DNA of 64,000 nt from Escherichia coli (GCF_045037415.1 NZ_CP173438.1); one strand, 5' to 3'. Positions 17,753-49,460 are shown, numbered from the stretch's first letter. The notes: generated from the letters alone by a model not told the origin. Program-made: numbers and translations.

Positions 17753-17812
17753 ATGATTGAACGTGAACTGGGGAACTGGAAAGACTTTATCGAAGTTATG
17801 CTTCGTAAGTAA
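17753..17812 (+). CDS. ypfM: Small protein YpfM (19 aa)
   Basis: ATG 17753 to TAA 17812 encodes MIERELGNWKDFIEVMLRK, preceded by RBS agagagg; matches the E. coli small protein as I recall it. Confidence 0.75.
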   Translation: MIERELGNWKDFIEVMLRK

Positions 17813-17877
17813 TTCCTGAGACAAAGTACAAACAGCAAGAACCCGCTGAGCAGGTTCTTAATCGGAAAGTTGAAAAG

Positions 17878-17905
17878 GGCGACACATTGGCATGTCGCCT
17901 TTTTT
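17878..17905. terminator. Bidirectional intrinsic terminator between ypfM and acrD
   Basis: ggcgaca/tgtcgcc stem flanked by A-run upstream and TTTTTT downstream. Confidence 0.75.
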
Positions 17906-17910
17906 ATTGC

Positions 17911-29936: not shown

Positions 29937-30224
29937 AGGAAATACTCCTTGAAAAGTAAAGTGTTAGATGAGTGCGTTAATTCACACTTCTGAGAAATTT
30001 CGCTAAACGCATCAAAAAAGCATAGCAGACAGGCATGGTATTGCTGGATTAAGCAGGTAACATCAGTGTTATATGATTATTACCAAAACATTATATTAAT
30101 GGTGAGAGTTTGGACTTGCTCAAAGTCTGTAGACTCCGGCAGGGTAATAATGTGCGCCACGTTGTGGGCAGGGGCTGTTGCCCACACAATTTATTTGTGA
30201 ACGTTACGTGAAAGGAACAACCAA

Positions 30225-32504
30225 ATGGATGACCAGTTAAAACAAAGTGCACTTGATTTCCATGAATTTCCAGTTCCAGGGAAAATCCAGGTTTCTCCAA
30301 CCAAGCCTCTGGCAACGCAGCGCGATCTGGCGCTGGCCTACTCACCAGGCGTTGCCGCACCTTGTCTTGAAATCGAAAAAGACCCGTTAAAAGCCTACAA
30401 ATATACCGCGCGCGGTAACCTGGTAGCGGTGATCTCTAACGGTACGGCGGTGCTGGGGTTAGGCAACATTGGCGCGCTGGCAGGCAAACCGGTGATGGAA
30501 GGCAAGGGCGTTCTGTTTAAGAAATTCGCCGGGATTGATGTATTTGACATTGAAGTTGATGAACTCGACCCGGACAAATTTATTGAAGTCGTCGCTGCGC
30601 TCGAACCGACCTTCGGCGGCATCAACCTCGAAGACATTAAAGCGCCAGAATGTTTCTATATTGAACAGAAACTGCGCGAGCGGATGAATATTCCGGTATT
30701 CCACGACGATCAGCACGGCACGGCAATTATCAGCACTGCCGCCATCCTCAACGGCTTGCGCGTGGTGGAGAAAAACATCTCCGACGTGCGGATGGTGGTT
30801 TCTGGCGCGGGTGCCGCAGCAATCGCCTGTATGAACCTGCTGGTAGCGCTGGGTCTGCAAAAACATAACATCGTGGTTTGCGATTCAAAAGGCGTTATCT
30901 ATCAGGGCCGTGAGCCAAACATGGCGGAAACCAAAGCCGCATATGCGGTGGTGGATGACGGCAAACGAACCCTCGATGATGTGATTGAAGGCGCGGATAT
31001 TTTCCTCGGCTGTTCCGGCCCGAAAGTGCTGACCCAGGAAATGGTGAAGAAAATGGCCCGTGCGCCAATGATCCTGGCGCTGGCGAACCCGGAACCGGAA
31101 ATTCTGCCGCCGCTGGCGAAAGAAGTGCGTCCGGATGCCATCATCTGTACCGGTCGTTCCGACTACCCGAACCAGGTGAACAACGTCCTTTGCTTCCCGT
31201 TTATCTTCCGTGGCGCGCTGGACGTTGGCGCAACCGCCATCAACGAAGAGATGAAACTGGCGGCGGTACGCGCGATTGCAGAACTGGCCCATGCGGAACA
31301 GAGTGAAGTGGTGGCTTCAGCGTATGGCGATCAGGATCTGAGCTTTGGTCCGGAATACATCATTCCAAAACCGTTTGATCCGCGCTTGATCGTTAAGATC
31401 GCTCCTGCGGTGGCGAAAGCGGCGATGGAGTCGGGCGTGGCGACGCGTCCGATTGCTGATTTCGACGTCTACATCGACAAGCTGACGGAGTTCGTTTACA
31501 AAACCAACCTGTTTATGAAGCCGATTTTCTCCCAGGCTCGCAAAGCGCCGAAGCGCGTAGTTCTGCCAGAAGGGGAAGAGGCGCGCGTTCTACATGCCAC
31601 TCAGGAACTGGTAACGCTGGGACTGGCGAAACCGATCCTTATTGGTCGTCCGAACGTGATCGAAATGCGCATTCAGAAACTGGGCTTGCAGATCAAGGCG
31701 GGCGTTGATTTTGAGATCGTCAATAACGAATCCGATCCGCGCTTTAAGGAGTACTGGACCGAATACTTCCAGATCATGAAGCGTCGCGGTGTCACTCAGG
31801 AGCAGGCGCAGCGTGCGCTGATCAGTAACCCGACAGTGATCGGCGCGATCATGGTTCAGCGTGGCGAAGCCGATGCAATGATTTGCGGTACGGTGGGCGA
31901 TTATCATGAACACTTTAGCGTGGTGAAAAATGTCTTTGGTTATCGCGATGGCGTTCACACCGCAGGTGCAATGAACGCGCTGCTGTTGCCGAGTGGTAAC
32001 ACCTTTATTGCCGATACCTACGTCAATGATGAGCCTGATGCAGAAGAGCTGGCGGAGATCACCTTGATGGCGGCAGAAACTGTTCGTCGTTTTGGTATTG
32101 AGCCGCGTGTGGCTCTGTTGTCGCACTCCAACTTTGGTTCTTCTGACTGCCCGTCGTCGAGCAAAATGCGTCAGGCGCTGGAACTGGTCAGGGAACGTGC
32201 GCCAGAACTGATGATTGATGGTGAAATGCACGGCGATGCAGCGCTGGTGGAAGCGATTCGCAACGACCGTATGCCGGACAGCCCTTTGAAAGGTTCCGCT
32301 AATATTCTGGTGATGCCGAACATGGAAGCTGCCCGCATTAGTTACAACTTACTGCGTGTTTCCAGCTCGGAAGGTGTGACTGTCGGCCCGGTGCTGATGG
32401 GGGTGGCGAAGCCGGTTCACGTGTTAACGCCGATCGCATCGGTACGTCGTATCGTCAACATGGTGGCGCTGGCCGTGGTTGAAGCGCAAACCCAACCGCT
32501 GTAA
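30225..32504 (+). CDS. maeB: NADP-dependent malic enzyme (malic enzyme fused to PTA-like domain)
   Basis: 759 aa, [47 protein letters not shown]... Confidence 0.97.
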
Positions 32505-32521
32505 TTCTTTTTTAACTCTCA

Positions 32522-32549
32522 CGCTTACCCTGAATATTCAGGGTAAGCG
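32522..32549 (+). terminator. Perfect inverted repeat downstream of maeB (probable terminator hairpin)
   Basis: cgcttaccctgaa tat tcagggtaagcg 13 bp stem; no clean T-run, so confidence limited. Confidence 0.45.
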
Positions 32550-32796
32550 GTTTAGCTGCAATATATTAGTAAAGTTTATTACTGAGTTTGCGAATAATAA
32601 AAAAATCAGTATATAAAATATCTCGATATTATTTTATTTATATTCATGCGTTGTATATGAAAATTTATGCACCACAGCAAATATCTCTCCATTCTTAGTG
32701 ATCTACCTCACCTTTTAAACGCGCTTGCCGAATTTTGTTATTTACTCTGACGAAAAATTGTCACGATACACGAAAGTTTTTCACAGGCGGCGACTC

Positions 32797-33132
32797 ATGG
32801 ATAAAGAACGCATCATTCAGGAATTTGTGCCCGGTAAACAGGTCACACTGGCGCATCTCATCGCGCATCCCGGCGAGGAACTGGCGAAGAAAATCGGCGT
32901 TCCGGATGCGGGCGCAATCGGCATTATGACGCTAACTCCCGGAGAAACGGCGATGATCGCCGGTGATTTAGCGTTGAAAGCCGCCGATGTGCATATCGGT
33001 TTTCTCGATCGTTTTAGTGGCGCGCTGGTGATTTATGGCTCGGTGGGCGCAGTAGAAGAAGCGTTATCACAAACCGTCAGTGGTTTAGGACGCTTATTAA
33101 ATTATACGCTTTGTGAAATGACCAAAAGTTAA
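32797..33132 (+). CDS. eutS: Ethanolamine utilisation microcompartment shell protein EutS
   Basis: ATG 32797 gives [32 protein letters not shown]..., 111 aa BMC domain. Confidence 0.93.
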
Positions 33133-33144
33133 TACGAGGCATTC

Positions 33145-33624
33145 ATGAAACGAATTGCGTTTGTGGGTACCGTCGGGGCAGGAAAAACAACGTTATTTAA
33201 TGCGTTGCAGGGGAATTATACCCTCGCAAGAAAAACACAGGCCGTGGAATTTAATGATAATGGCGATATTGATACGCCGGGTGAATATTTTAGCCATCCC
33301 CGCTGGTATCACGCCTTAATTACCACGCTACAGGATGTGGATATGCTGATCTATGTCCACGGCGCGAATGACCCGGAAAGTCGGTTGCCTGCCGGGTTGC
33401 TGGATATTGGCGTCAGCAAACGGCAAATCGCCGTCATCAGTAAAACGGACATGCCAGATGCTGACGTCGCCGCAACGCGAAAGTTATTGCTTGAGACGGG
33501 CTTCGAAGAGCCGATTTTCGAGCTAAACAGCCACGACCCGCAAAGCGTGCAGCAACTGGTGGATTATCTGGCATCTCTCACCAAACAGGAGGAAGCAGGT
33601 GAAAAAACTCATCACAGCGAATGA
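33145..33624 (+). CDS. eutP: Ethanolamine utilisation GTPase/acetate kinase-like EutP
   Basis: 159 aa, P-loop GTVGAGKTT. Confidence 0.93.
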   Translation: MKRIAFVGTVGAGKTTLFNALQGNYTLARKTQAVEFNDNGDIDTPGEYFSHPRWYHALITTLQDVDMLIYVHGANDPESRLPAGLLDIGVSKRQIAVISKTDMPDADVAATRKLLLETGFEEPIFELNSHDPQSVQQLVDYLASLTKQEEAGEKTHHSE

Positions 33625-34300
33625 TATTCGTGAAGCACACGCGCGCGGCGAACTGGCAATGTCCGTGGTTCTGCGCGCCAGCATTATTACCCCGGAAGCT
33701 CGTGAAGTGGCTGATCTGTTGGGTTTTACCATCACCGAATGTGATGAATCGATCCCGGTAACGGCGTCTGTTCCCGCCAGCGCATCAGCCGATAAAACCG
33801 AAAGCCAGCGCATCCGTGAAACCATTATCGCCCAACTGCCGGAAGGTCAGTTTACCGAAAGCCTGGTCGCGCAGCTGATGGAAAAAGTGATGAAGGAAAA
33901 ACAGTCGCTGGAACAGGGTGCACTGCAGCCGAGCTTTAAATCGGTGACCGGCAAAGGCGGCATCAAAGTTATTGATGGCAGCAGCGTCAAGTTTGGTCGT
34001 TTCGATGGCGCGGAACCGCACTGCGTAGGCTTGACTGATCTCGTGACCGGAGACGACGGCAGCAGTATGGCCGCTGGTTTCATGCAGTGGGAGAACGCCT
34101 TCTTTCCGTGGACCCTGAACTACGACGAAATCGACATGGTGCTGGAAGGGGAGCTGCATGTTCGCCACGAAGGCGAAACTATGATCGCCAAAGCGGGCGA
34201 TGTGATGTTTATCCCGAAAGGCTCCAGCATCGAATTTGGTACGACATCCAGCGTGAAATTCCTGTATGTCGCCTGGCCGGCTAACTGGCAATCCTTATGA
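33599..34300 (+). CDS. eutQ: Ethanolamine utilisation cupin-fold acetate kinase EutQ
   Basis: 233 aa, MKKLITANDIREAHARGELAMSVVLRASIITPEAREVADL...; start overlaps eutP by 26 nt. Confidence 0.93.
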   Translation: MKKLITANDIREAHARGELAMSVVLRASIITPEAREVADLLGFTITECDESIPVTASVPASASADKTESQRIRETIIAQLPEGQFTESLVAQLMEKVMKEKQSLEQGALQPSFKSVTGKGGIKVIDGSSVKFGRFDGAEPHCVGLTDLVTGDDGSSMAAGFMQWENAFFPWTLNYDEIDMVLEGELHVRHEGETMIAKAGDVMFIPKGSSIEFGTTSSVKFLYVAWPANWQSL

Positions 34301-35100
34301 AAGATTTCATCACCGAAGCATGGCTAAGAGCGAACCATACGCTCAGCGAAGGCGCAGAGATCCATCTCCCTGCGGACAGTCGCCTGACGCCCTCTGCCCG
34401 GGAGTTACTGGAAAGCCGCCATCTGCGCATCAAGTTTATTGACGAGCAGGGCCGCCTGTTTGTTGACGATGAACAGCAGCAGCCGCAGCCCGTTCACGGG
34501 CTGACCAGTAGCGATGAACATCCGCAGGCGTGCTGCGAACTGTGCCGCCAGCCGGTGGCAAAAAAGCCGGATACGCTGACTCACCTGTCGGCGGAAAAAA
34601 TGGTTGCCAAAAGCGATCCGCGTCTGGGTTTTCGCGCTGTTCTCGACAGCACCATTGCGCTGGCAGTGTGGCTGCAAATTGAACTGGCAGAACCGTGGCA
34701 GCCGTGGCTGGCGGACATCCGCTCGCGTCTTGGCAACATTATGCGTGCCGATGCGCTGGGGGAACCGCTGGGCGAGCAAGCGATTGTCGGGCTTTCTGAC
34801 GAAGATCTGCATCGGCTTTCTCACCAGCCGCTGCGTTATCTCGACCACGATCATCTGGTGCCGGAAGCCAGCCACGGGCGCGATGCGGCGTTGCTCAATC
34901 TGCTACGCACCAAAGTGCGGGAAACAGAAACCGTAGCGGCGCAGGTCTTTATCACCCGCAGCTTTGAAGTATTACGCCCGGACATTTTGCAGGCGCTGAA
35001 CCGCCTTTCCAGCACGGTCTACGTGATGATGATCCTGAGCGTAACGAAGCAGCCGCTAACGGTGAAGCAGATCCAACAACGACTGGGGGAAACGCAATGA
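34297..35100 (+). CDS. eutT: Ethanolamine utilisation cob(I)alamin adenosyltransferase EutT
   Basis: 267 aa, [43 protein letters not shown]...; ATGA overlap with eutQ. Confidence 0.93.
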
Positions 35101-36113
35101 TTATTAAACGTTGTCGTGAACTGGCGTTGCGAGCGCCCGCCAGAGTAGTTTTTCCGGATGCGTTAGATCAACGTGTGCTGAAAGCTGCGCAATATTTACA
35201 TCAACAAGGTCTGGCAACGCCCATTCTGGTCGCCAATCCGTTTGAACTTCGTCAGTTTGCGCTCAGTCACGGCGTGGCGATGGACGGGCTACAGGTGATA
35301 GATCCGCATGGCAACCTCGCAATGCGGGAAGAATTTGCTCATCGCTGGCTGGCCCGCGCGGGCGAAAAAACGCCGCCGGATGCGCTGGAAAAACTTACCG
35401 ATCCGCTGATGTTCGCCGCTGCAATGGTCAGCGCCGGTAAAGCGGATGTCTGTATCGCGGGCAACCTCTCTTCCACGGCGAATGTGCTGCGTGCCGGATT
35501 ACGCATTATCGGCTTGCAGCCAGGCTGTAAAACGCTCTCATCCATTTTCCTGATGCTGCCACAGTACAGCGGTCCGGCGTTGGGTTTTGCCGATTGCAGC
35601 GTGGTGCCACAGCCGACGGCGGCACAACTGGCGGATATCGCGCTTGCCAGCGCCGAAACCTGGCGCGCCATCACCGGAGAAGAACCGCGCGTGGCGATGC
35701 TGTCGTTTTCCAGCAACGGTAGTGCCCGTCACCCCTGTGTTGCCAACGTCCAGCAGGCGACAGAAATCGTCCGTGAGCGCGCACCAAAGCTGGTTGTCGA
35801 TGGCGAGTTGCAGTTTGACGCCGCCTTCGTGCCGGAAGTGGCGGCGCAAAAAGCGCCTGCCAGCCCGTTACAGGGCAAAGCTAATGTGATGGTTTTTCCG
35901 TCGCTGGAAGCCGGAAATATTGGCTACAAAATCGCACAACGACTTGGCGGATATCGTGCCGTCGGGCCATTGATACAAGGACTTGCCGCGCCGATGCACG
36001 ATCTCTCTCGTGGTTGTAGCGTGCAGGAAATTATCGAACTGGCGCTGGTGGCAGCTGTGCCGCGTCAGACAGAAGTGAACCGCGAAAGCAGTTTACAAAC
36101 ACTGGTTGAATGA
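35097..36113 (+). CDS. eutD: Ethanolamine utilisation phosphotransacetylase EutD
   Basis: 338 aa PTA-family protein, [34 protein letters not shown]... Confidence 0.95.
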
Positions 36114-36151
36114 ACGGTCCCGTTCTGGACCCTGATAAAGAGGAAAGCACA

Positions 36152-36445
36152 ATGGAAGCATTAGGAATGATCGAAACCCGGGGCCTGGTTGCACTGATTG
36201 AGGCTTCTGACGCGATGGTTAAAGCTGCGCGCGTCAAGCTGGTTGGTGTTAAGCAGATTGGCGGCGGCCTGTGTACTGCCATGGTTCGTGGTGATGTTGC
36301 AGCCTGTAAAGCCGCGACCGATGCAGGTGCCGCAGCGGCACAGCGTATCGGCGAGCTGGTATCTGTACACGTTATCCCGCGTCCGCACGGCGACCTGGAA
36401 GAAGTCTTCCCGATCGGCCTGAAAGGCGATAGCAGCAACCTGTAA
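36152..36445 (+). CDS. eutM: Major BMC shell protein EutM
   Basis: ATG 36152 gives [39 protein letters not shown]..., 97 aa. Confidence 0.97.
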
Positions 36446-36551
36446 TCACCCTGTGTGACGTCGATTCGGGCGTCACGCTCTCTCCTTTTTCATTTTACCT
36501 TCTGCGGAGGGTAGGGGGAGCTTTTACCTGAAATACGCCACGGAGGCGGGT

Positions 36552-36839
36552 ATGAAACTGGCAGTCGTCACTGGACAAATTGTTTGTACCGTACGCCATC
36601 ACGGACTGGCGCATGACAAATTGCTGATGGTGGAAATGATTGATCCACAAGGTAATCCTGACGGGCAATGCGCCGTCGCCATCGACAATATTGGCGCGGG
36701 AACCGGGGAGTGGGTGTTACTGGTGAGTGGCAGTTCCGCCCGCCAGGCGCATAAAAGCGAAACGTCACCGGTCGATCTGTGCGTGATTGGCATTGTCGAT
36801 GAGGTGGTGTCTGGCGGTCAGGTCATTTTCCACAAATAA
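36552..36839 (+). CDS. eutN: BMC vertex (pentamer) protein EutN
   Basis: 95 aa, MKLAVVTGQIVCTVRHHGLAHDKLLMVEMIDPQGNPDGQ... Confidence 0.95.
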   Translation: MKLAVVTGQIVCTVRHHGLAHDKLLMVEMIDPQGNPDGQCAVAIDNIGAGTGEWVLLVSGSSARQAHKSETSPVDLCVIGIVDEVVSGGQVIFHK

Positions 36840-36850
36840 GGCAGAACATC

Positions 36851-38254
36851 ATGAATCAACAGGATATTGAACAGGTGGTGAAAGCGGTACTGCTGAAAAT
36901 GCAAAGCAGTGACACGCCGCCCGCCGCCGTTCATGAGATGGGCGTTTTCGCGTCCCTGGATGACGCCGTTGCGGCAGCCAAAGTCGCCCAGCAAGGGTTA
37001 AAAAGCGTGGCAATGCGCCAGTTAGCCATTGCTGCCATTCGTGAAGCAGGCGAAAAACACGCCAGAGATTTAGCGGAACTTGCCGTCAGTGAAACCGGCA
37101 TGGGGCGCGTTGAAGATAAATTTGCCAAAAACGTCGCTCAGGCGCGCGGCACACCAGGCGTTGAGTGCCTCTCTCCGCAAGTGCTGACTGGCGACAACGG
37201 CCCGACCCTGATTGAAAACGCACCCTGGGGCGTGGTGGCTTCAGTGACGCCTTCCACTAACCCGGCGGCAACCGTAATTAACAACGCCATCAGCCTGATT
37301 GCCGCGGGCAACAGCGTCATTTTTGCCCCGCATCCGGCGGCGAAAAAAGTCTCCCAGCGGGCGATTACGCTGCTCAACCTGGCGATTGTTGCCGCAGGCG
37401 GGCCGGAAAACTTACTGGTTACCGTAACAAATCCGGATATCGAAACCGCGCAACGCTTGTTCAAGTTTCCGGGCATCGGCCTTTTGGTGGTGACCGGCGG
37501 CGAAGCGGTAGTAGAAGCGGCGCGTAAACACACCAATAAACGTCTGATTGCCGCAGGCGCTGGCAACCCGCCGGTAGTGGTGGATGAAACCGCCGACCTC
37601 GCCCGTGCTGCTCAGTCCATCGTCAAAGGCGCTTCTTTCGATAACAACATCATTTGTGCCGACGAAAAGGTACTGATTGTTGTTGATAGCGTAGCCGATG
37701 AACTGATGCGTCTGATGGAAGGCCAGCATGCGGTGAAACTGACCGCAGAGCAGGCGCAGCAACTGCAATCGGTGTTGCTGAAAAATATCGACGAGCGCGG
37801 AAAAGGCACCGTCAGCCGTGACTGGGTTGGTCGCGATGCGGCGAAAATCGCGGCGGCAATCGGCCTTAAAGTTCCGGAACAAACGCGACTGCTGTTTGTA
37901 GAAACCACCGCAGAACATCCGTTTGCCGTGACCGAACTGATGATGCCGGTGCTGCCCGTCGTGCGCGTCGCCAACGTGGCGGATGCCATTGCGCTGGCGG
38001 TGAAACTGGAAGGCGGTTGCCACCACACGGCGGCAATGCACTCGCGCAATATCGAAAACATGAACCAGATGGCGAACGCCATTGATACCAGCATTTTCGT
38101 TAAGAACGGACCGTGTATTGCCGGGCTGGGGCTGGGCGGGGAAGGCTGGACCACGATGACCATCACCACGCCAACCGGTGAAGGGGTAACCAGCGCGCGG
38201 ACGTTTGTCCGTCTGCGTCGCTGTGTATTAGTCGATGCGTTTCGCATTGTTTAA
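36851..38254 (+). CDS. eutE: Acetaldehyde dehydrogenase (acetylating) EutE
   Basis: 467 aa aldehyde dehydrogenase family, MNQQDIEQVVKAVLLKMQSSD... Confidence 0.95.
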   Translation: MNQQDIEQVVKAVLLKMQSSDTPPAAVHEMGVFASLDDAVAAAKVAQQGLKSVAMRQLAIAAIREAGEKHARDLAELAVSETGMGRVEDKFAKNVAQARGTPGVECLSPQVLTGDNGPTLIENAPWGVVASVTPSTNPAATVINNAISLIAAGNSVIFAPHPAAKKVSQRAITLLNLAIVAAGGPENLLVTVTNPDIETAQRLFKFPGIGLLVVTGGEAVVEAARKHTNKRLIAAGAGNPPVVVDETADLARAAQSIVKGASFDNNIICADEKVLIVVDSVADELMRLMEGQHAVKLTAEQAQQLQSVLLKNIDERGKGTVSRDWVGRDAAKIAAAIGLKVPEQTRLLFVETTAEHPFAVTELMMPVLPVVRVANVADAIALAVKLEGGCHHTAAMHSRNIENMNQMANAIDTSIFVKNGPCIAGLGLGGEGWTTMTITTPTGEGVTSARTFVRLRRCVLVDAFRIV

Positions 38255-38264
38255 GGAGTAACCG

Positions 38265-39101
38265 ATGGCGCACGATGAACAATGGCTCACCCCACGTCTG
38301 CAAACGGCGGCAACGCTGTGTAACCAGACGCCCGCCGCGACGGAATCTCCGCTGTGGCTGGGGGTGGATCTGGGCACCTGCGATGTGGTGTCGATGGTTG
38401 TCGACCGCGACGGTCAGCCGGTGGCGGTATGCCTCGACTGGGCCGATGTGGTCCGCGACGGCATCGTCTGGGATTTCTTCGGTGCGGTCACCATTGTTCG
38501 TCGCCATCTCGACACCCTTGAGCAGCAATTCGGTCGCCGTTTTAGCCATGCGGCGACCTCATTTCCTCCTGGTACGGACCCGCGTATTTCCATCAACGTG
38601 CTGGAGTCTGCCGGACTGGAAGTGAGCCATGTGCTGGATGAGCCAACCGCAGTTGCGGATCTGCTGCAACTGGACAACGCCGGTGTAGTGGATATCGGCG
38701 GCGGCACTACCGGCATTGCCATCGTGAAAAAGGGCAAAGTGACGTACTCGGCGGATGAAGCCACCGGCGGACATCACATCTCTCTGACTCTCGCCGGAAA
38801 TCGCCGTATTTCGCTGGAAGAGGCAGAGCAGTACAAACGCGGTCACGGTGACGAGATTTGGCCCGCGGTGAAACCGGTGTACGAAAAAATGGCGGACATT
38901 GTGGCCCGTCATATTGAAGGGCAGGGCATTACGGATTTATGGCTGGCGGGCGGTTCCTGTATGCAACCGGGCGTAGCGGCGCTGTTTTGCAAACAATTTC
39001 CGGCGTTACAGGTGCATTTACCGCAGCACAGTTTGTTTATGACCCCGCTGGCAATCGCCAGTAGTGGGCGAGAGAAAGCGGAGGGGCTATATGCAAAATG
39101 A
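38265..39101 (+). CDS. eutJ: Ethanolamine utilisation chaperonin-like protein EutJ (Hsp70/actin fold)
   Basis: 278 aa, MAHDEQWLTPRLQTAATLCNQ...DIGGGTTGIAIV. Confidence 0.93.
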   Translation: MAHDEQWLTPRLQTAATLCNQTPAATESPLWLGVDLGTCDVVSMVVDRDGQPVAVCLDWADVVRDGIVWDFFGAVTIVRRHLDTLEQQFGRRFSHAATSFPPGTDPRISINVLESAGLEVSHVLDEPTAVADLLQLDNAGVVDIGGGTTGIAIVKKGKVTYSADEATGGHHISLTLAGNRRISLEEAEQYKRGHGDEIWPAVKPVYEKMADIVARHIEGQGITDLWLAGGSCMQPGVAALFCKQFPALQVHLPQHSLFMTPLAIASSGREKAEGLYAK

Positions 39102-40278
39102 ATTGCAGACCGCGCTCTTTCAGGCGTTCGATACCCTGAATCTGCAACGGGTAAAAACATTTAGCGTTCCACCGGTGACGCTTTGCGGTCCGGGCGCGGT
39201 GAGCAGTTGTGGGCAGCAAGCGCAAACGCGTGGGTTGAAACATCTGTTCGTGATGGCAGACAGCTTTTTGCATCAGGCAGGGATGACCGCTGGGCTGACG
39301 CGTAGCCTGGCCGTTAAAGGTATCGCCATGACGCTCTGGCCATGTCCGGTGGGCGAACCGTGCATCACCGACGTGTGTGCAGCCGTGGCGCAGTTGCGTG
39401 AATCAGGTTGTGACGGGGTGATCGCGTTTGGCGGCGGCTCGGTGCTGGATGCGGCGAAAGCCGTGGCGTTGCTGGTGACGAACCCGGATAGCACGCTGGC
39501 AGAAATGTCAGAAACCAGCGTTCTGCAACCGCGCCTGCCGTTGATTGCCATTCCAACGACCGCCGGAACCGGCTCTGAAACCACCAACGTGACGGTGATT
39601 ATCGATGCGGTAAGCGGGCGCAAACAGGTGTTAGCCCATGCCTCGCTGATGCCGGATGTCGCGATTCTCGACGCTGTGCTAACCGAAGGCGTGCCGTCGC
39701 ATGTCACGGCGATGACTGGCATTGATGCGTTAACCCATGCCATTGAAGCGTACAGCGCGCTGAACGCTACACCGTTTACCGACAGCCTGGCGATTGGCGC
39801 CATTGCGATGATTGGTCAATCGCTGCCGAAAGCGGTGGGCTACGGTCACGACCTTGTCGCCCGCGAGAGCATGTTGCTGGCTTCATGTATGGCGGGAATG
39901 GCGTTTTCCAGCGCCGGGCTTGGGTTATGCCACGCGATGGCGCATCAGCCAGGGGCGGCGCTGCATATTCCGCACGGTCTGGCGAACGCCATGTTGCTGC
40001 CAACGGTGATGGAATTTAACCGGATGGTTTGTCGTGATCGGTTTAGTCAGATTGGTCGGGCGCTGCGAACTAAAAAATCCGACGATCGTGACGCTATTAA
40101 TGCGGTAAGTGAGCTGATAGCGGAAGTTGGGATCAACAAGCGGCTGGCTGATGTGGGTGCAACAACCGGGCATTACGGTGCATGGGCGCAGGCCGCGCAG
40201 GAAGATATTTGTCTGCGCAGTAACCCGCGTACCGCCAGCCTCGAGCAGATTGTCGGCCTGTACGCAGCGGCGCAATAA
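39091..40278 (+). CDS. eutG: Iron-containing alcohol dehydrogenase EutG
   Basis: ATG 39091 gives MQNELQTALFQAFDTLNLQRVKTFSVPPVTLCGPGAVSSCG..., 395 aa; overlaps eutJ by 11 nt. Confidence 0.93.
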   Translation: MQNELQTALFQAFDTLNLQRVKTFSVPPVTLCGPGAVSSCGQQAQTRGLKHLFVMADSFLHQAGMTAGLTRSLAVKGIAMTLWPCPVGEPCITDVCAAVAQLRESGCDGVIAFGGGSVLDAAKAVALLVTNPDSTLAEMSETSVLQPRLPLIAIPTTAGTGSETTNVTVIIDAVSGRKQVLAHASLMPDVAILDAVLTEGVPSHVTAMTGIDALTHAIEAYSALNATPFTDSLAIGAIAMIGQSLPKAVGYGHDLVARESMLLASCMAGMAFSSAGLGLCHAMAHQPGAALHIPHGLANAMLLPTVMEFNRMVCRDRFSQIGRALRTKKSDDRDAINAVSELIAEVGINKRLADVGATTGHYGAWAQAAQEDICLRSNPRTASLEQIVGLYAAAQ

Positions 40279-40279
40279 A

Positions 40280-40464
<185 letters not shown>

Positions 40465-40494
40465 ATAAATAACAACTAACAGGGAGTAAAGGCG

Positions 40495-41721
40495 ATGGGA
40501 ATTAACGAAATCATCATGTACATCATGATGTTCTTTATGCTGATAGCTGCCGTAGACAGGATCCTGTCGCAGTTCGGCGGTTCTGCTCGTTTCCTCGGTA
40601 AGTTCGGTAAAAGTATCGAAGGATCCGGCGGTCAGTTCGAAGAAGGCTTTATGGCAATGGGCGCTCTGGGCCTGGCTATGGTCGGTATGACCGCACTGGC
40701 ACCGGTACTGGCCCACGTTCTCGGACCGGTGATTATCCCGGTTTACGAAATGCTCGGCGCAAACCCGTCAATGTTCGCCGGAACACTGCTGGCGTGCGAT
40801 ATGGGCGGCTTCTTCCTCGCCAAAGAGCTGGCGGGCGGTGACGTAGCAGCGTGGCTATACTCTGGGTTAATTCTCGGGTCGATGATGGGGCCAACGATTG
40901 TGTTTTCCATTCCGGTGGCGCTCGGCATTATCGAACCTTCTGACCGTCGTTATCTGGCGCTCGGCGTGCTGGCGGGCATAGTGACCATTCCGATTGGCTG
41001 TATCGCTGGTGGTCTGGTAGCGATGTACTCCGGTGTGCAGATCAACGGCCAGCCTGTTGAATTCACCTTTGCGCTGATCCTGATGAACATGATCCCGGTA
41101 CTTATCGTTGCGGTGCTGGTGGCGCTGGGGCTGAAATTCATCCCGGAAAAAATGATCAACGGCTTCCAGATCTTCGCCAAATTCCTCGTTGCATTGATCA
41201 CCCTCGGTCTTGCCGCTGCGGTAGTGAAATTCCTCCTTGGCTGGGAACTGATCCCGGGCCTTGATCCTATCTTTATGGCCCCTGGCGATAAACCCGGTGA
41301 AGTGATGCGCGCCATTGAAGTTATCGGCTCGATCTCCTGCGTTCTGTTAGGGGCGTATCCAATGGTACTGCTGCTGACTCGCTGGTTTGAAAAACCGCTG
41401 ATGAGCGTCGGTAAGGTGCTGAATATGAACAATATCGCGGCAGCCGGCATGGTGGCAACGCTTGCCAACAACATTCCGATGTTTGGCATGATGAAGCAGA
41501 TGGATACCCGCGGCAAAGTCATCAACTGTGCCTTCGCCGTTTCCGCTGCTTTCGCGCTGGGCGACCATTTAGGCTTCGCCGCTGCCAACATGAACGCCAT
41601 GATCTTCCCGATGATTGTCGGCAAATTGATCGGCGGCGTAACGGCAATTGGCGTGGCGATGATGCTGGTGCCAAAAGAAGACGCGAGCGCGGCTAAAACC
41701 GAAGCGGAGGCGCAATCGTGA
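40495..41721 (+). CDS. eutH: Ethanolamine permease EutH
   Basis: 408 aa polytopic membrane protein, MGINEIIMYIMMFFMLIAAVDRIL... Confidence 0.95.
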   Translation: MGINEIIMYIMMFFMLIAAVDRILSQFGGSARFLGKFGKSIEGSGGQFEEGFMAMGALGLAMVGMTALAPVLAHVLGPVIIPVYEMLGANPSMFAGTLLACDMGGFFLAKELAGGDVAAWLYSGLILGSMMGPTIVFSIPVALGIIEPSDRRYLALGVLAGIVTIPIGCIAGGLVAMYSGVQINGQPVEFTFALILMNMIPVLIVAVLVALGLKFIPEKMINGFQIFAKFLVALITLGLAAAVVKFLLGWELIPGLDPIFMAPGDKPGEVMRAIEVIGSISCVLLGAYPMVLLLTRWFEKPLMSVGKVLNMNNIAAAGMVATLANNIPMFGMMKQMDTRGKVINCAFAVSAAFALGDHLGFAAANMNAMIFPMIVGKLIGGVTAIGVAMMLVPKEDASAAKTEAEAQS

Positions 41722-43121
41722 ACACTCGCCAGCTACTGAGCGTCGGTATCGATATCGGCACCACCACCACCCAGGTGATCTTCTCCCACCTGGAGCTGGT
41801 TAACCGTGCGGCGGTGTCGCAGGTGCCGCGCTACGAATTCATCAAACGCGAAATTAGCTGGCAAAGCCCGGTGTTCTTTACCCCTGTCGATAAACAGGGT
41901 GGTTTAAAAGAAGCGGAACTGAAAACCTTAATCCTCGAGCAATATCAGGCTGCGGGCATTGCGCCGGAAAGCGTTGATTCTGGTGCCATCATCATCACCG
42001 GTGAAAGCGCGAAAACCCGCAACGCTCGCCCGGCGGTGATGGCGCTCTCTCGGTCGCTGGGCGATTTTGTCGTCGCCAGCGCCGGGCCGCATCTCGAATC
42101 CGTGATCGCCGGTCACGGTGCCGGGGCGCAAACCCTTTCTGAACAACGGCTGTGTCGGGTACTGAATATCGACATCGGCGGTGGCACCGCGAACTACGCC
42201 CTGTTCGATGCCGGAAAAATCAGCGGCACTGCCTGCCTCAACGTCGGCGGTCGCCTGCTGGAAACCGACAGCCAGGGGCGCGTGGTTTACGCTCATAAAC
42301 CGGGGCAGATGATTGTGGATGAGTGCTTCGGCCCAGGCACTGACGCCCGTTCGCTGACCGGCGCGCAATTGGCGCAGGTTACCCGCCGGATGGCGGAACT
42401 GATTGTCGAAGTGATTGACGGAACGCTCTCGCCGCTCGCGCAGGCATTGATGCAAACCGGTTTGCTGCCCGCAGGTGTTACGCCCGAAATCATTACGCTT
42501 TCTGGCGGGGTAGGCGAATGTTATCGCCACCAGCCCGCCGACCCGTTCTGTTTTGCCGATATCGGCCCGCTTCTGGCAACGGCGCTGCATGACCATCCGC
42601 GTCTGCGTGAGATGAACGTGCAGTTTCCGGCGCAAACCGTGCGCGCCACGGTGATTGGCGCGGGTGCACATACCCTTTCGCTCTCTGGCAGCACAATATG
42701 GCTGGAGGGCGTACAACTGCCGCTGCGCAATTTGCCGGTGGCGATCCCGATTGATGAAACGGATCTGGTCAGTGCCTGGCAACAGGCGCTGATTCAACTG
42801 GATCTTTGCCCCAAAACTGACGCGTACGTGCTGGCGCTTCCCGCCTCGCTGCCTGTGCGTTACGCCGCGGTACTGACGGTCATCAACGCGCTGGTCGATT
42901 TCGTCGCGCGTTTTCCGAATCCGCATCCCCTGCTGGTGGTGGCCGGGCAGGACTTTGGTAAAGCTCTGGGCATGTTGTTGCGCCCACAGCTACAACAACT
43001 CCCGTTGGCAGTCATTGACGAAGTGATTGTCCGCGCGGGGGACTATATCGACATTGGTACGCCTCTTTTTGGCGGATCGGTTGTGCCGGTGACGGTGAAA
43101 TCACTCGCATTTCCTTCCTGA
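41718..43121 (+). CDS. eutA: Ethanolamine ammonia-lyase reactivase EutA
   Basis: 467 aa, MNTRQLLSVGIDIGTTTTQVIFSHLELVNRAA...; ATGA-type overlap with eutH. Confidence 0.95.
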   Translation: MNTRQLLSVGIDIGTTTTQVIFSHLELVNRAAVSQVPRYEFIKREISWQSPVFFTPVDKQGGLKEAELKTLILEQYQAAGIAPESVDSGAIIITGESAKTRNARPAVMALSRSLGDFVVASAGPHLESVIAGHGAGAQTLSEQRLCRVLNIDIGGGTANYALFDAGKISGTACLNVGGRLLETDSQGRVVYAHKPGQMIVDECFGPGTDARSLTGAQLAQVTRRMAELIVEVIDGTLSPLAQALMQTGLLPAGVTPEIITLSGGVGECYRHQPADPFCFADIGPLLATALHDHPRLREMNVQFPAQTVRATVIGAGAHTLSLSGSTIWLEGVQLPLRNLPVAIPIDETDLVSAWQQALIQLDLCPKTDAYVLALPASLPVRYAAVLTVINALVDFVARFPNPHPLLVVAGQDFGKALGMLLRPQLQQLPLAVIDEVIVRAGDYIDIGTPLFGGSVVPVTVKSLAFPS

Positions 43122-43132
43122 GGGAACGACTT

Positions 43133-44494
43133 ATGAAACTAAAGACCACATTGTTCGGCAATGTATATCAGTTTAAGGATGTAAAAGAGGTGCTGGCTAA
43201 AGCCAACGAACTGCGTTCGGGGGATGTGCTGGCGGGCGTTGCTGCGGCAAGCTCACAGGAGCGCGTGGCGGCAAAGCAGGTGTTGTCGGAAATGACTGTA
43301 GCGGACATCCGCAATAATCCGGTGATTGCCTATGAAGATGACTGCGTGACGCGGCTGATTCAGGACGACGTTAACGAAACGGCCTACAACCAGATTAAAA
43401 ACTGGAGCATCAGCGAACTGCGTGAGTATGTGCTGAGCGATGAAACCAGCGTGGATGACATTGCCTTTACCCGCAAAGGGCTGACCTCGGAAGTGGTGGC
43501 GGCGGTAGCGAAGATTTGCTCCAACGCGGACCTGATCTACGGCGCGAAGAAAATGCCGGTGATCAAAAAGGCCAATACCACCATCGGTATTCCGGGCACC
43601 TTCAGCGCCCGCTTGCAGCCGAACGATACCCGTGACGACGTGCAAAGTATCGCCGCGCAAATCTACGAAGGGCTTTCCTTCGGGGTGGGCGATGCGGTGA
43701 TCGGCGTTAACCCGGTGACTGACGACGTGGAAAACTTAAGCCGCGTGTTGGATACCATCTATGGCGTGATCGACAAATTCAACATCCCAACTCAGGGCTG
43801 CATACTGGCGCACGTCACTACCCAAATCGAAGCGATTCGTCGCGGCGCACCAGGCGGGCTGATTTTCCAGAGTATCTGCGGCAGCGAAAAAGGGCTGAAA
43901 GAGTTTGGCGTAGAGCTGGCGATGCTCGATGAAGCACGCGCAGTGGGCGCGGAGTTCAACCGTATCGCCGGGGAAAACTGCCTCTACTTCGAAACCGGAC
44001 AAGGTTCGGCGCTGTCTGCTGGCGCGAACTTCGGCGCAGACCAGGTGACGATGGAAGCGCGTAACTATGGGCTGGCGCGTCATTACGATCCGTTTATCGT
44101 CAACACTGTGGTCGGCTTTATTGGGCCGGAGTATCTCTACAACGACCGCCAGATTATCCGCGCAGGCTTAGAAGATCACTTTATGGGCAAACTGAGCGGC
44201 ATCTCTATGGGCTGTGACTGCTGCTACACCAACCACGCTGACGCTGACCAGAACCTCAACGAAAACCTGATGATCCTGCTCGCCACCGCAGGCTGCAACT
44301 ACATCATGGGGATGCCGCTGGGCGATGACATCATGCTCAACTATCAGACCACCGCATTCCACGACACTGCCACTGTGCGTCAGTTACTGAATCTGCGCCC
44401 GTCACCGGAGTTTGAACGCTGGCTGGAAAGCATGGGCATTATGGCAAACGGTCGCCTGACCAAACGGGCGGGCGATCCGTCACTGTTCTTCTGA
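43133..44494 (+). CDS. eutB: Ethanolamine ammonia-lyase heavy chain EutB
   Basis: 453 aa, MKLKTTLFGNVYQFKDVKEVLAKANELRSGDVLAGV... Confidence 0.97.
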   Translation: MKLKTTLFGNVYQFKDVKEVLAKANELRSGDVLAGVAAASSQERVAAKQVLSEMTVADIRNNPVIAYEDDCVTRLIQDDVNETAYNQIKNWSISELREYVLSDETSVDDIAFTRKGLTSEVVAAVAKICSNADLIYGAKKMPVIKKANTTIGIPGTFSARLQPNDTRDDVQSIAAQIYEGLSFGVGDAVIGVNPVTDDVENLSRVLDTIYGVIDKFNIPTQGCILAHVTTQIEAIRRGAPGGLIFQSICGSEKGLKEFGVELAMLDEARAVGAEFNRIAGENCLYFETGQGSALSAGANFGADQVTMEARNYGLARHYDPFIVNTVVGFIGPEYLYNDRQIIRAGLEDHFMGKLSGISMGCDCCYTNHADADQNLNENLMILLATAGCNYIMGMPLGDDIMLNYQTTAFHDTATVRQLLNLRPSPEFERWLESMGIMANGRLTKRAGDPSLFF

Positions 44495-44514
44495 TGACGC
44501 GGAGATAACACATC

Positions 44515-45402
44515 ATGGATCAAAAACAGATTGAAGAAATTGTACGCAGCGTGATGGCGTCAATGGGACAAGCGGCCCCCGCGCCGTCAGAAGCAAAGTG
44601 CGCCACCACCACCTGTGCGGCACCGGTGACCTCGGAAAGCTGCGCGCTGGATTTAGGTTCTGCGGAAGCAAAAGCGTGGATTGGTGTTGAAAACCCGCAT
44701 CACGCAGACGTATTAACAGAACTGCGTCGCAGCACCGTGGCCCGCGTTTGTACCGGTCGTGCCGGTCCGCGTCCGCGCACCCAGGCGTTGCTGCGTTTCC
44801 TGGCCGATCACTCTCGTTCGAAAGATACCGTTCTGAAAGAAGTACCGGAAGAGTGGGTGAAAGCGCAGGGCTTGCTGGAAGTCCGCTCCGAAATCAGCGA
44901 CAAAAATCTCTACCTGACTCGCCCGGATATGGGCCGCCGCCTGTGTGCAGAAGCTGTTGAAGCGCTGAAAGCACAGTGTGTTGCTAATCCGGACGTGCAG
45001 GTCGTTATTTCTGATGGCCTGTCAACTGATGCGATCACCGTGAACTACGAAGAGATCCTGCCGCCGCTGATGGCGGGCCTGAAGCAAGCCGGGCTGAAAG
45101 TCGGTACGCCATTCTTTGTACGTTATGGTCGCGTGAAGATTGAAGATCAGATCGGTGAGATCCTCGGCGCGAAAGTAGTGATCCTGCTGGTGGGCGAACG
45201 TCCGGGGTTGGGGCAGTCAGAAAGCCTCTCCTGCTACGCCGTTTACTCGCCGCGTATGGCGACCACCGTTGAGGCTGACCGCACTTGTATCTCTAACATT
45301 CACCAGGGCGGCACGCCGCCGGTTGAAGCCGCAGCCGTCATTGTGGATTTGGCGAAACGTATGCTGGAGCAGAAAGCATCCGGCATCAACATGACCCGAT
45401 AA
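44515..45402 (+). CDS. eutC: Ethanolamine ammonia-lyase light chain EutC
   Basis: 295 aa, [22 protein letters not shown]... Confidence 0.97.
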
Positions 45403-45411
45403 GGAGGCATC

Positions 45412-46071
45412 ATGCCAGCTTTAGATTTGATTCGACCGTCGGTAACCGCCATGCGGGTGATTGCCTCCGTTAACGCCGAATTTGCACGTGAACTGAAATT
45501 GCCGCCGCATATTCGTAGCCTCGGGCTGATTTCTGCTGATTCAGATGACGTCACCTACATTGCGGCTGACGAAGCGACCAAGCAGGCGATGGTCGAAGTG
45601 GTATATGGTCGCTCGCTGTATGCGGGCGCTGCACACGGCCCGTCACCGACTGCCGGTGAGGTGCTGATTATGCTTGGTGGACCAAACCCGGCGGAAGTGC
45701 GTGCTGGTCTGGATGCGATGGTTGCGAATATTGAAAATGGCGCTGCTTTCCAGTGGGCTAATGACGCAGAAAACACAGCCTTCCTGGCACATGTAGTTTC
45801 GCGTACCGGTTCTTATCTCTCATCAACCGCCGGGATCACGCTTGGCGATCCGATGGCGTATCTGGTGGCACCGCCGCTGGAAGCGACCTACGGCATTGAT
45901 GCAGCGTTGAAATCTGCCGACGTGCAGCTGGTGACCTATGTCCCGCCACCGTCTGAAACCAACTACTCGGCAGCATTTTTAACCGGTAGCCAGGCCGCGT
46001 GTAAAGCAGCCTGTAACGCCTTTACCGATGCAGTGCTGGAAATCGCGCGTAATCCAATCCAGCGTGCGTAA
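45412..46071 (+). CDS. eutL: BMC shell protein EutL (tandem BMC domains)
   Basis: 219 aa, [41 protein letters not shown]... Confidence 0.95.
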
Positions 46072-46083
46072 CGGAGGTTGCCG

Positions 46084-46584
46084 ATGATCAATGCACTGGG
46101 ATTGCTGGAAGTGGACGGCATGGTCGCCGCGATAGATGCAGCTGATGCCATGCTCAAAGCAGCTAACGTTCGTCTGCTCAGTCACGAAGTGCTTGACCCT
46201 GGTCGCCTAACGCTGGTGGTGGAAGGCGATCTGGCGGCGTGTCGTGCGGCGCTGGACGCAGGTTGTGCTGCCGCGATGCGTACCGGGCGTGTCATCAGCC
46301 GCAAGGAGATCGGTCGGCCAGACGATGACACCCAGTGGCTGGTTACTGGCTTTAACCGCCAGCCTAAGCAACCCGTAAAGGAACCCGACGCGCCAGTTAT
46401 CGTCGCGGAATCTGCTGACGAGTTGTTGGCGCTGTTAACATCAGTACGTCAGGGAATGACGGCAGGAGAAGTGGCTGCCCACTTTGGCTGGCCGCTGGAA
46501 AAAGCCAGAAATGCGCTCGAACAGCTCTTTTCTGCCGGGACGTTACGTAAACGCAGTAGTCGTTACCGTCTCAAGCCCCATTAA
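46084..46584 (+). CDS. eutK: BMC shell protein EutK (BMC domain plus C-terminal helix-turn-helix-like tail)
   Basis: ATG 46084 gives MINALGLLEVDGMVAAIDAADAMLKAANVRLL..., 166 aa. Confidence 0.93.
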   Translation: MINALGLLEVDGMVAAIDAADAMLKAANVRLLSHEVLDPGRLTLVVEGDLAACRAALDAGCAAAMRTGRVISRKEIGRPDDDTQWLVTGFNRQPKQPVKEPDAPVIVAESADELLALLTSVRQGMTAGEVAAHFGWPLEKARNALEQLFSAGTLRKRSSRYRLKPH

Positions 46585-46629
46585 CCTGTCGGAGGTGCCG
46601 GGTGTCCTACAACACCCGGCATTAACATC

Positions 46630-47682
46630 ATGAAAAAGACCCGTACAGCCAATTTGCACCATCTTTATCATGAACCCTTACCCGAAAACCTGAAGCTCAC
46701 GCCGAAGGTCGAAGTGGATAATGTTCATCAACGACAGACAACGGACGTCTATGAACATGCTTTGACAATTACCGCCTGGCAGCAGATTTACGATCAGCTG
46801 CATCCGGGCAAGTTTCATGGTGAATTTACGGAAATTCTACTCGATGATATTCAGGTTTTTCGTGAATACACTGGTCTGGCGCTGCGTCAGTCGTGCCTGG
46901 TCTGGCCGAACTCGTTCTGGTTTGGCATTCCGGCGACGCGCGGTGAGCTGGGATTTATCGGTTCGCAATGTCTGGGAAGCGCAGAAATTGCGACGCGCCC
47001 GGGTGGAACCGAGTTTGAATTAAGTACGCCGGACGATTACACGATCCTTGGCGTAGTGCTTTCTGAAGATGTCATCACTCGTCAGGCTAACTTTTTGCAT
47101 AATCCGGATCGGGTATTACATATGCTGCGTAGCCAGTCGGCGCTGGAAGTGAAAGAGCAGCATAAAGCCGCTCTGTGGGGCTTTGTCCAACAGGCGCTGG
47201 CGACGTTTTGCGAGAACCCGGAAAATCTCCATCAGCCTGCAGTGCGAAAAGTGCTGGGGGATAATTTGCTCATGGCGATGGGGGCGATGCTGGAAGAAGC
47301 GCAGCCGATGATGACGGCGGAAAGCATCAGCCATCAGAGTTACCGCCGATTGCTTTCCCGCGCCCGTGAATATGTGCTGGAAAACATGTCCGAACCGGTG
47401 ACGGTGCTGGACTTGTGTAATCAACTGCATGTCAGCCGCCGCACGCTACAAAACGCATTTCACGCCATTTTGGGCATTGGTCCGAACGCGTGGCTGAAAC
47501 GTATTCGCCTGAACGCCGTGCGCCGCGAACTCATAAGTCCGTGGTCACAAAGCACAACGGTAAAAGACGCCGCCATGCAGTGGGGATTCTGGCATCTTGG
47601 GCAATTTGCCACGGATTATCAGCAACTGTTTGCCGAGAAGCCGTCACTGACGCTGCATCAGCGGATGCGAGAGTGGGGGTGA
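46630..47682 (+). CDS. eutR: AraC-family transcriptional activator of the eut operon
   Basis: 350 aa, C-terminal AraC HTH ([45 protein letters not shown]). Confidence 0.95.
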
Positions 47683-47687
47683 GGGAG

Positions 47688-48590
<903 letters not shown>

Positions 48591-49460
48591 TTACCGCTTT
48601 CTCGAGTGTGCTTTCTGGTTGTCAAACCAGTGGAAATAACTGATCACGCCTTCGGCAATCGCTGTGGCGATTTTCTGGCGAAACGCCGCCGTGCCTAACA
48701 GCCGCTCTTCTTCCGGGTTGGTGATAAACGAGGTTTCCACCAGCACCGACGGAACCGACGGCGATTTCAACACCACAAACGCGGCTTGTTCGGTGTTGCG
48801 GCTGTGCAGTTTATGCACCGGCTTAATCTTTTTCAGAATATGCGAGCCGAGCGTCAGGCTGTTTTTAATAGTATCGGTTTGCACCAGATCAAACAGCACT
48901 TGCTGCAATAGGTGATCCTTGTCAGTCGCTTTTTTACCGGCAACTTCATCGGCGCGGTTTTCGCGTTCAGACAGGTATTTTGCCATTGCGCTACTTGCCC
49001 CGCGGTTAGAGAGGGCAAATACCGAAGCACCGGCAGCTTTCGGGTTGGTAAAGCCGTCGGCATGAATTGACATAAACAGATCTGCGCCATGTTTATGGGC
49101 GATTTCAACGCGATCGTACAGTGGGATAAACGTATCGCCAGAACGCGTTAAACGCGCATCAATGCCATGATTACGCAATATGGAACGGACATTCTTGGCA
49201 ATTGCCAGCACCACATGTTTTTCTTTCGAACCGTTGCGTCCGATCGCTCCGGTATCAATCCCGCCGTGGCCTGGATCGAGAACAACGACACGTCTGCCGC
49301 CGCTTTTTTTTGCTTTCGGCTTGCTGTGTCCGTTACTGGTTTTTAACGGTTCTTCTTTGGCGATGGCTTGCGACATTCCTGACAACGTCAGGGCAGCCAA
49401 ACCGGCTTTCAGCACCTGGCGGCGCGAAGTGAGTGTTTTTAGTGGTTTAAAAGTGCTCAT
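48591..49460 (-). CDS. amiA: N-acetylmuramoyl-L-alanine amidase AmiA
   Basis: 289 aa, Tat-type signal MSTFKPLKTLTSRRQVLKAGLAALTLSG; amidase_3 domain. Confidence 0.97.
   Translation of the reverse strand: MSTFKPLKTLTSRRQVLKAGLAALTLSGMSQAIAKEEPLKTSNGHSKPKAKKSGGRRVVVLDPGHGGIDTGAIGRNGSKEKHVVLAIAKNVRSILRNHGIDARLTRSGDTFIPLYDRVEIAHKHGADLFMSIHADGFTNPKAAGASVFALSNRGASSAMAKYLSERENRADEVAGKKATDKDHLLQQVLFDLVQTDTIKNSLTLGSHILKKIKPVHKLHSRNTEQAAFVVLKSPSVPSVLVETSFITNPEEERLLGTAAFRQKIATAIAEGVISYFHWFDNQKAHSRKR

Follow-up and report, generated by a model that had tools for sequence, protein, structure and literature searches.

This work concerns a stretch of 64,000 nucleotides of Escherichia coli DNA, which we call the window, and the genes for ethanolamine utilization (eut) that it carries. 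On the plus strand from 32797 to 47682 these genes follow one another in the order eutS-P-Q-T-D-M-N-E-J-G-H-A-B-C-L-K-R. The map of open reading frames (ORFs) and the spacing of the genes show no foreign insertion among them. A preliminary description of this DNA had claimed a complete 17-gene eut operon here, and the claim holds. All 17 genes are full length, on the plus strand and in the canonical order, and the two bounds it gave are exactly the start of eutS and the stop of eutR.

Genes of the operon

The Eut proteins match their NCBIfam models over the full profile length, with scores 1.1-2.5 times the curated cut-offs. There are no internal stops in any of the 17 genes, and each has the length of its orthologue in K-12 MG1655. 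Taking the longest ORF mechanically makes eutS, eutM, eutG and eutK too long; their true starts are 32797, 36152, 39091 and 46084. The genes are as follows, with lengths in amino acids (aa).

32797..33132, plus strand: eutS, circularly permuted bacterial microcompartment (BMC) shell protein, 111 aa (NF012012 1-111/111, 247 bits; Pfam BMC; 0 aa differences from K-12)
33145..33624, plus strand: eutP, EutP/PduV-family GTPase-like protein, annotated as acetate kinase, 159 aa (NF012011 1-159/159, 351 bits)
33599..34300, plus strand: eutQ, cupin-type acetate kinase, 233 aa, GTG start (NF012001 1-233/233, 498 bits)
34297..35100, plus strand: eutT, ATP:cob(I)alamin adenosyltransferase, 267 aa (NF011595 1-267/267, 569 bits)
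35097..36113, plus strand: eutD, phosphotransacetylase, 338 aa, annotated pta/eutD (NF007233 410 bits, TIGR00651 331 bits)
36152..36445, plus strand: eutM, major hexameric BMC-H shell protein, 97 aa (NF012018 1-97/97; Pfam BMC 101.6 bits; protein identical to K-12)
36552..36839, plus strand: eutN, pentameric BMC-P vertex protein, 95 aa (NF011992 1-95/95; Pfam EutN_CcmL)
36851..38254, plus strand: eutE, CoA-acylating acetaldehyde dehydrogenase, 467 aa (NF011927 731 bits; Pfam Aldedh)
38265..39101, plus strand: eutJ, DnaK/actin-fold chaperone-like protein, 278 aa (NF011660 400 bits)
39091..40278, plus strand: eutG, Fe-dependent alcohol dehydrogenase, 395 aa (NF011998 1-395/395, 882 bits; start as in RefSeq)
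40495..41721, plus strand: eutH, ethanolamine permease/facilitator, 408 aa (NF011665 1-408/408, 873 bits)
41718..43121, plus strand: eutA, ethanolamine ammonia-lyase reactivase, 467 aa, GTG start (NF007991 1-467/467, 1069 bits; Pfam EutA)
43133..44494, plus strand: eutB, large subunit of the adenosylcobalamin (AdoCbl)-dependent ethanolamine ammonia-lyase, 453 aa (NF011649 664 bits; Pfam EutB 685 bits)
44515..45402, plus strand: eutC, ethanolamine ammonia-lyase small subunit, 295 aa (NF003971 340 bits, residues 52-294; Pfam EutC 276 bits)
45412..46071, plus strand: eutL, tandem-domain BMC-T shell protein, 219 aa (NF011934 401 bits; Pfam BMC, two stretches)
46084..46584, plus strand: eutK, BMC-H shell protein with a C-terminal nucleic-acid-binding-like domain, 166 aa (NF012010 1-166/166; Pfam BMC and EutK_C)
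46630..47682, plus strand: eutR, AraC-family activator of the operon, 350 aa (NF007522 1-350/350, 787 bits)

By the Pfam and NCBIfam matches the full set of EUT1 shell proteins is present: EutM and EutK (BMC-H), the permuted EutS, EutL (BMC-T) and EutN (BMC-P). The window also holds the other parts that define an operon of the EUT1 type, namely the EutBC lyase, EutA together with EutT, the EutE/EutG/EutD core and a terminal AraC-type regulator, EutR. The profile match of EutC begins at residue 52, which leaves an N-terminal extension of about 50 residues before the catalytic domain. Residues 1-32 are identical to those of K-12, and the sole differences in the protein are N33T and R63H. The first 20 residues of K-12 EutC (EutC1-20) serve as a BMC-targeting tag (PMC11334477), and we predict that the extension in the window is an encapsulation peptide.

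The boundary between eutA and eutB

The last base of eutA is 43121 and the first of eutB is 43133. The spacer between them (43122-43132) is GGGAACGACTT, followed by ATG. The preliminary description put eutB 12 bp after eutA, which is right as an offset of the start; the spacer itself is 11 nt long. It had also stated that a prophage separates the two genes in K-12 MG1655, and both the annotation and the sequences of the two junctions bear this out. The annotated 'cryptic prophage CPZ-55' of MG1655 (2558691-2565480, 6,790 bp, intZ and yffL-yffS) sits exactly after the eutA stop codon and is transcribed in the direction opposite to eut. A comparison of its two junctions shows the same 8 bp, CTTCCTGA, at either end, a duplication that takes in the stop codon of eutA. 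The window has this core once.

43114..43121, plus strand: unoccupied attachment core CTTCCTGA for IntZ-type islands (the CPZ-55 family), overlapping the eutA stop; single copy in the window

A single copy means that the attachment site is empty, and there is no integrase or island DNA between eutA and eutB in the window. The adjacency of the two genes had been put forward as the ancestral arrangement. The single core, the duplication in K-12 and the frequency of intact junctions in the species all support this, and the insertion of CPZ-55 is the derived state.

That frequency comes from 5,426 complete E. coli genomes, counted with a 601-bp query centred on the eutA/eutB junction and a requirement for contiguous cover. 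The junction is intact in 4,963 of them (91.5%). The uninterrupted operon is the norm for the species and the prophage-split copy of MG1655 is the exception. Integrases like IntZ are encoded in 412 of the genomes. In 216 the gene is at least 99% identical to the K-12 copy, and those sampled are almost all laboratory derivatives of K-12. Diverged intZ genes (80-95% identity) are found in about 196 genomes, which are natural isolates.

A different count, of genomes that match at least 80% of a 15-kb query in one place, gives 4,294, but as a measure of interruption it is an artefact. It is unreliable because it joins pieces up to about 8 kb apart, so that K-12 with CPZ-55 counts as covered. It is also unreliable because copy number varies among the repetitive extragenic palindromic (REP) elements between eutG and eutH, which breaks matches at query position 7668. 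The gap between these two genes is 116 nt in strain SW07164, 216 nt in the window and in K-12, and 516 nt in KE41, where the operon is complete despite the break. Variation in the number of these bacterial interspersed mosaic elements (BIMEs) breaks long BLAST joins and so mimics interruption. An apparent 36-bp scar at the junction in MRE162 was also rejected, as it is an in-frame change of length inside eutB and not at the bacterial attachment site, attB. The eutB gene of that strain is annotated as 1,398 nt against 1,362 nt, a 36-nt in-frame gain near its 5' part.

Other islands have used the same site. The wild isolate SW07164 has a different island of 9.9 kb between eutA and eutB (locus 10089-20021), flanked by the same CTTCCTGA duplication. 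Its integrase is a diverged IntZ (86% nucleotide identity to intZ) and its genes are mostly hypothetical. This agrees with Dadswell et al., who describe the site as a hot spot for prophage insertion (PMC6652756). Islands can also leave it. In the W3110 reference (NC_007779.1) eutA and eutB are adjacent without CPZ-55 and have the same 11-nt spacer (8127-8137 of the locus). Not every K-12 strain is thus interrupted, and the island does get lost precisely. The absence of CPZ-55 matches the eut+ phenotype reported for W3110 (PMC11334477) and implies a precise excision within the K-12 pedigree.

The junction in the window could itself be a restored one, if an ancestral IntZ-type island had been excised precisely and attB regenerated. 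In that case only the form of the arrangement would be ancestral, and its history would not. W3110 is evidence that such loss happens, since CPZ-55 is in place in its sister strain MG1655; the diverged islands of wild isolates show that the site does get occupied; and an excision would leave no scar because the islands combine a tyrosine integrase with a flanking 8-bp direct repeat. We nevertheless hold this history to be very unlikely. Intact junctions are too common and intZ-like genes too rare, with more than half of the latter near-identical copies from the K-12 lineage, and no remnant of island DNA is left in the window. For sequence type 131 (ST131), the lineage to which we assign the window below, a site that was never occupied is the more parsimonious reading. 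The two histories are indistinguishable here because they leave identical sequence, and there is no functional difference between them.

Lineage, function and EutB residue 224

Many E. coli ST131 chromosomes, JJ1887 and O25b:H4 strains among them, match a 15.2-kb stretch of the window at 100% identity, and 21.2 kb of JJ1887 is identical to the window throughout. The RefSeq annotation of JJ1887 calls all 17 eut genes and puts a pseudogene flag on none. Compared with K-12 after removal of CPZ-55, the operon is collinear: each copy has 14,886 nt, and there are 508 substitutions and no indels (96.6% identity). The Eut proteins differ from those of K-12 by 0-12 aa each. The ratio of nonsynonymous to synonymous substitution rates (dN/dS, Nei-Gojobori) is 0-0.19 per gene, with 0.007 for eutB and 0.011 for eutD. 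Ratios this low mean that the eut genes have been kept under purifying selection. It could be argued that these ORFs are a chance or decayed arrangement, a set of pseudogenised remnants and not a real operon. We give that argument no weight at all. It is refuted by the full-length matches to curated equivalog models at 1.1-2.5 times the cut-offs, by the identity of the sequence to RefSeq genes that bear no pseudogene flags, and by dN/dS ratios far below 1.

Divergence from K-12 is not even along the operon. It is near zero in two pockets, 36097-37000 (eutM, the following spacer and eutN) and 45997-46900 (eutK and the start of eutR), where 300 nt contain 0-2 differences, compared with about 10-20 in other parts. 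Constraint on the codons or RNA structure of the major shell genes is one possible explanation, and a mosaic produced by recombination is another.

One substitution helps to place the lineage. Codon 224 of eutB (43802-43804) is ATA, for Ile, where K-12 has Val. This V224I change is all that separates EutB from its K-12 counterpart and from PDB 3ABO, the E. coli enzyme of known crystal structure (452/453 identical). It is the eutB single nucleotide polymorphism (SNP) that Ben Zakour et al. list among the marker mutations of the transition from clade B to clade C of ST131, common only to the C0 strain CD306 and clade C (PMC4850260, Table 1). An exact 41-mer with the Ile224 allele is present in 355 of the 5,426 genomes, and all those sampled are ST131-like. 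The window has both Ile at this codon (EC958 position 2744500) and identity to known ST131 genomes, which together mark ST131 clade C. The loci of other clade markers, fimH30 and the gyrA/parC alleles for fluoroquinolone resistance, are not part of the 64 kb. We believe, with a probability of about 0.93, that the region is the chromosomal EUT1-type operon of E. coli ST131 clade C, complete and with the IntZ/CPZ-55 site between eutA and eutB unoccupied.

The operon had also been called presumably functional, and support for this comes from intact genes under purifying selection and from published experiments in related strains. In the work of Jallet et al., BW25113 regained the ability to grow with ethanolamine as nitrogen source once the prophage had been scarlessly removed, and they conclude that an uninterrupted operon is essential for ethanolamine use (PMC11334477). 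In BW25113, Clare et al. observed induction of eutS and eutR, but none of eutB, and saw no microcompartments. In Nissle 1917, a B2 strain, they found that eutB is induced, microcompartments form and the cells grow on ethanolamine plus B12 (PMC7617246). Each of the 47 sequenced uropathogenic E. coli (UPEC) isolates studied by Dadswell et al. has a conserved operon, and 45 of them use ethanolamine as sole nitrogen source (PMC6652756).

The mechanism is established for the Salmonella/E. coli family, and here we carry it over by orthology. EutR would activate a promoter upstream of eutS when ethanolamine and AdoCbl are both present, and the operon would amplify its own expression because eutR is its last gene. 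EutH would admit ethanolamine, which EutBC would cleave to acetaldehyde and ammonia. EutA would reactivate EutBC while EutT supplied the adenosylated cofactor. The shell of EutS, EutM, EutN, EutL and EutK would trap the acetaldehyde, which is volatile and toxic. EutE would convert acetaldehyde to acetyl-CoA, EutG would recycle NAD+ through the formation of ethanol, and EutD would recycle CoA through acetyl-phosphate, which would yield ATP and acetate. The cell would gain ammonia as a nitrogen source and acetyl units. Transcription must read from eutS through eutA into eutBCLK-R, so it is the intact junction that keeps expression of the lyase and of the late shell genes going. CPZ-55, 6.8 kb long and in the opposite orientation, blocks this read-through in MG1655 and BW25113.

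The main promoter (PI), dependent on EutR, ethanolamine and AdoCbl, is placed upstream of eutS by analogy with the Salmonella/E. coli literature (PMC7617246, Fig. 1 legend).

32505..32796, plus strand: maeB-eutS intergenic region, the probable site of PI; 292 nt, 98% identical to K-12

An ungapped comparison of this region with K-12 gave 70 mismatches and the appearance of a divergent eutS promoter. We rejected this because an alignment gave two compensating 1-nt indels and the 98% identity listed above. The roughly 120 nt nearest to eutS are 100% identical.

Several points weigh against our reading of the locus and are best taken together. A scan of the plus strand upstream of eutS for the sigma-70 consensus found no match. 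This is as expected for an activator-dependent promoter, and such scans did no better than shuffled sequence (promoter-like sites 4 against 9.1 expected, terminator-like sites 18 against 18.5 expected). E. coli needs an external corrinoid for the ethanolamine pathway, and the B12 uptake genes that the pathway needs lie outside the window. We infer the function of this operon from the integrity of its sequence and from related strains. Two of the 47 UPEC with a conserved operon showed no ethanolamine-dependent growth (PMC6652756), so an intact operon is no guarantee of ethanolamine use. Finally there is residue 224 itself, which lies within the conserved EutB motif PTQxC-V-LAHVTTQ. Among 92 diverse EutB representatives that cover the site, taken from clusters at 50% identity, position 224 is Val in 68, Cys in 11, Leu in 4 and Ile in none, and Ile224 may have a subtle kinetic effect.

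The preliminary description had allowed for a disabling mutation in a eut gene that a reading at the level of ORFs would miss. V224I is the sole candidate for such a change. The case for an operon that is structurally intact but impaired or re-tuned in this lineage would start from this residue, which lies in strand beta-3 of the barrel, or from other B2-specific substitutions or a regulatory change. V224I is the one difference of EutB from K-12 and 3ABO, it puts into a conserved motif a residue absent from all the representatives, and it is among the few SNPs that mark the transition from clade B to clade C; the two UPEC that failed to grow can be cited as well. We hold an impaired operon to be very improbable. 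The eutB gene has the dN/dS of 0.007 given above, and all the other eut genes are full length and under purifying selection. The Ile224 allele persists in a globally successful clone of the gut and urinary tract, where eut is beneficial. An exchange of Val for Ile is conservative, the clade has had great success, and the literature searched reports no V224I phenotype; for these reasons we treat V224I as probably neutral. The reverse proposal is that V224I is not neutral, and that it alters the activity of the lyase or the balance between its inactivation and reactivation in a way that would aid the gut and urinary colonisation success of this pandemic clade. We would bet heavily against it. 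The change itself dates from just before ST131 clade C expanded. An intact operon of clade C with a probably neutral change in EutB remains our reading.

Spacers, surroundings and related systems

The genes of the operon are tightly packed. They overlap by 4 nt at eutQ/T, eutT/D and eutH/A, by 26 nt at eutP/Q and by 11 nt at eutJ/G. The other gaps are 9-45 nt long and have Shine-Dalgarno-like motifs, apart from two longer spacers, eutM-eutN (106 nt) and eutG-eutH (216 nt). Each of these contains a structured element.

36453..36478, plus strand: stable hairpin followed by a T-rich tract in the eutM-eutN spacer; a terminator-like match with a 10 bp stem and 6 GC pairs
40277..40464, no strand assigned: two tandem 100-bp BIME units with four REP palindromes, filling the eutG-eutH spacer; Rfam RF02564 naRNA4

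The eutM-eutN spacer folds at -43.5 kcal/mol (z = -2.74), and all 106 nt are 100% identical to K-12. Its hairpin is possibly a partial terminator or an element that stabilises the mRNA, and could set a high ratio of EutM to EutN. The eutG-eutH spacer matches RF02564, a REP-derived family, at 75.5 bits, above the gathering score. It contains an 88-nt direct repeat of 97% identity and nested inverted repeats. Apart from REP-derived naRNA4 matches, an Rfam scan of 30000-50000 at E<=1 found no B12 riboswitch or other RNA, which fits regulation of the EutR type.

A 332-aa ORF on the minus strand inside eutA (41928-42926) was considered and rejected. Pfam gives no match for it and RefSeq does not annotate it; most likely it is an artefact of composition in a stretch with 62% GC.

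Upstream of eut lies maeB, and hemF and amiA lie downstream in convergent orientation. The remainder of the window consists of ordinary core genes, from purN to maeB upstream and from hemF to ptsI downstream. The eut operon is for this reason the largest functional module of the window, as had been claimed for it.

The flanking core is not entirely the same as that of K-12. The window is without murR, the murQP repressor (917 bp), and without almost all of yfeW/pbp4B (1,409 bp), at about 54759-54806 and 52219-52259 respectively. In JJ1887 an annotated remnant of yfeW/pbp4B is only 87 nt long. Because murR is present in 4,379 of the 5,426 genomes, the lack of it is a lineage trait, shared by about 19% of genomes, and from this one would predict that murQP is de-repressed. 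A 142-bp segment of K-12 between cysP and ucpA also has no counterpart in the window (about 55781-55785), and may be a REP-type element.

The eut microcompartment is the means by which E. coli draws nitrogen, and some carbon and energy, from host ethanolamine in the gut and in urine. Since ethanolamine supplies these there, an intact operon is relevant to the fitness of pandemic, multidrug-resistant ST131. It is important to keep in mind that K-12 MG1655 and BW25113 are unsuited as the reference state for eut. The value of checking this locus is mainly negative: it is ordinary, and its intact state is that of the species.

How does this operon compare with known systems? The EUT2 loci of Firmicutes (Enterococcus, Listeria, Clostridium) share the signature enzyme EutBC, EutA and the logic of the BMC shell with the window, and the Listeria EutB 2QEZ matches with E = 4e-192. 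In EUT2 loci control lies with the EutVW two-component system and a small RNA with an AdoCbl riboswitch. The operon of the window differs in having the AraC-type regulator EutR and no EutVW, and no riboswitch was detected in it.

Within E. coli, the eut::CPZ-55 operon of MG1655 and BW25113 has all 17 genes intact, of the same lengths as in the window and between the same flanks, maeB and hemF. Unlike the operon of the window, it is interrupted by CPZ-55, which abolishes eutB induction, BMC formation and the use of ethanolamine. W3110, the eut+ K-12 strain (PMC11334477), has the same eutA-eutB adjacency and 11-nt spacer as the window. Nissle 1917 and clinical UPEC, of phylogroup B2 and other clinical backgrounds, have an uninterrupted operon like that of the window. 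Induction that depends on ethanolamine plus B12, BMCs and growth have been shown in such strains. The window has the Ile224 allele of EutB found in ST131 clade C.

The closest match is the EUT1 operon of Salmonella enterica and E. coli (Kofoid et al. 1999, cited in PMC7617246), with the same 17 genes in the same order, on the same strand and with a terminal EutR. The differences from it are allelic only (96.6% nucleotide identity to K-12, V224I included) and none is structural. The preliminary description judged the locus well described and not novel, and we agree, as the literature already covers the operon, the CPZ-55 insertion in MG1655, the hot spot and what interruption does to function. 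No aspect of the locus is new; it is a textbook EUT1 operon, uninterrupted as is normal for the species.

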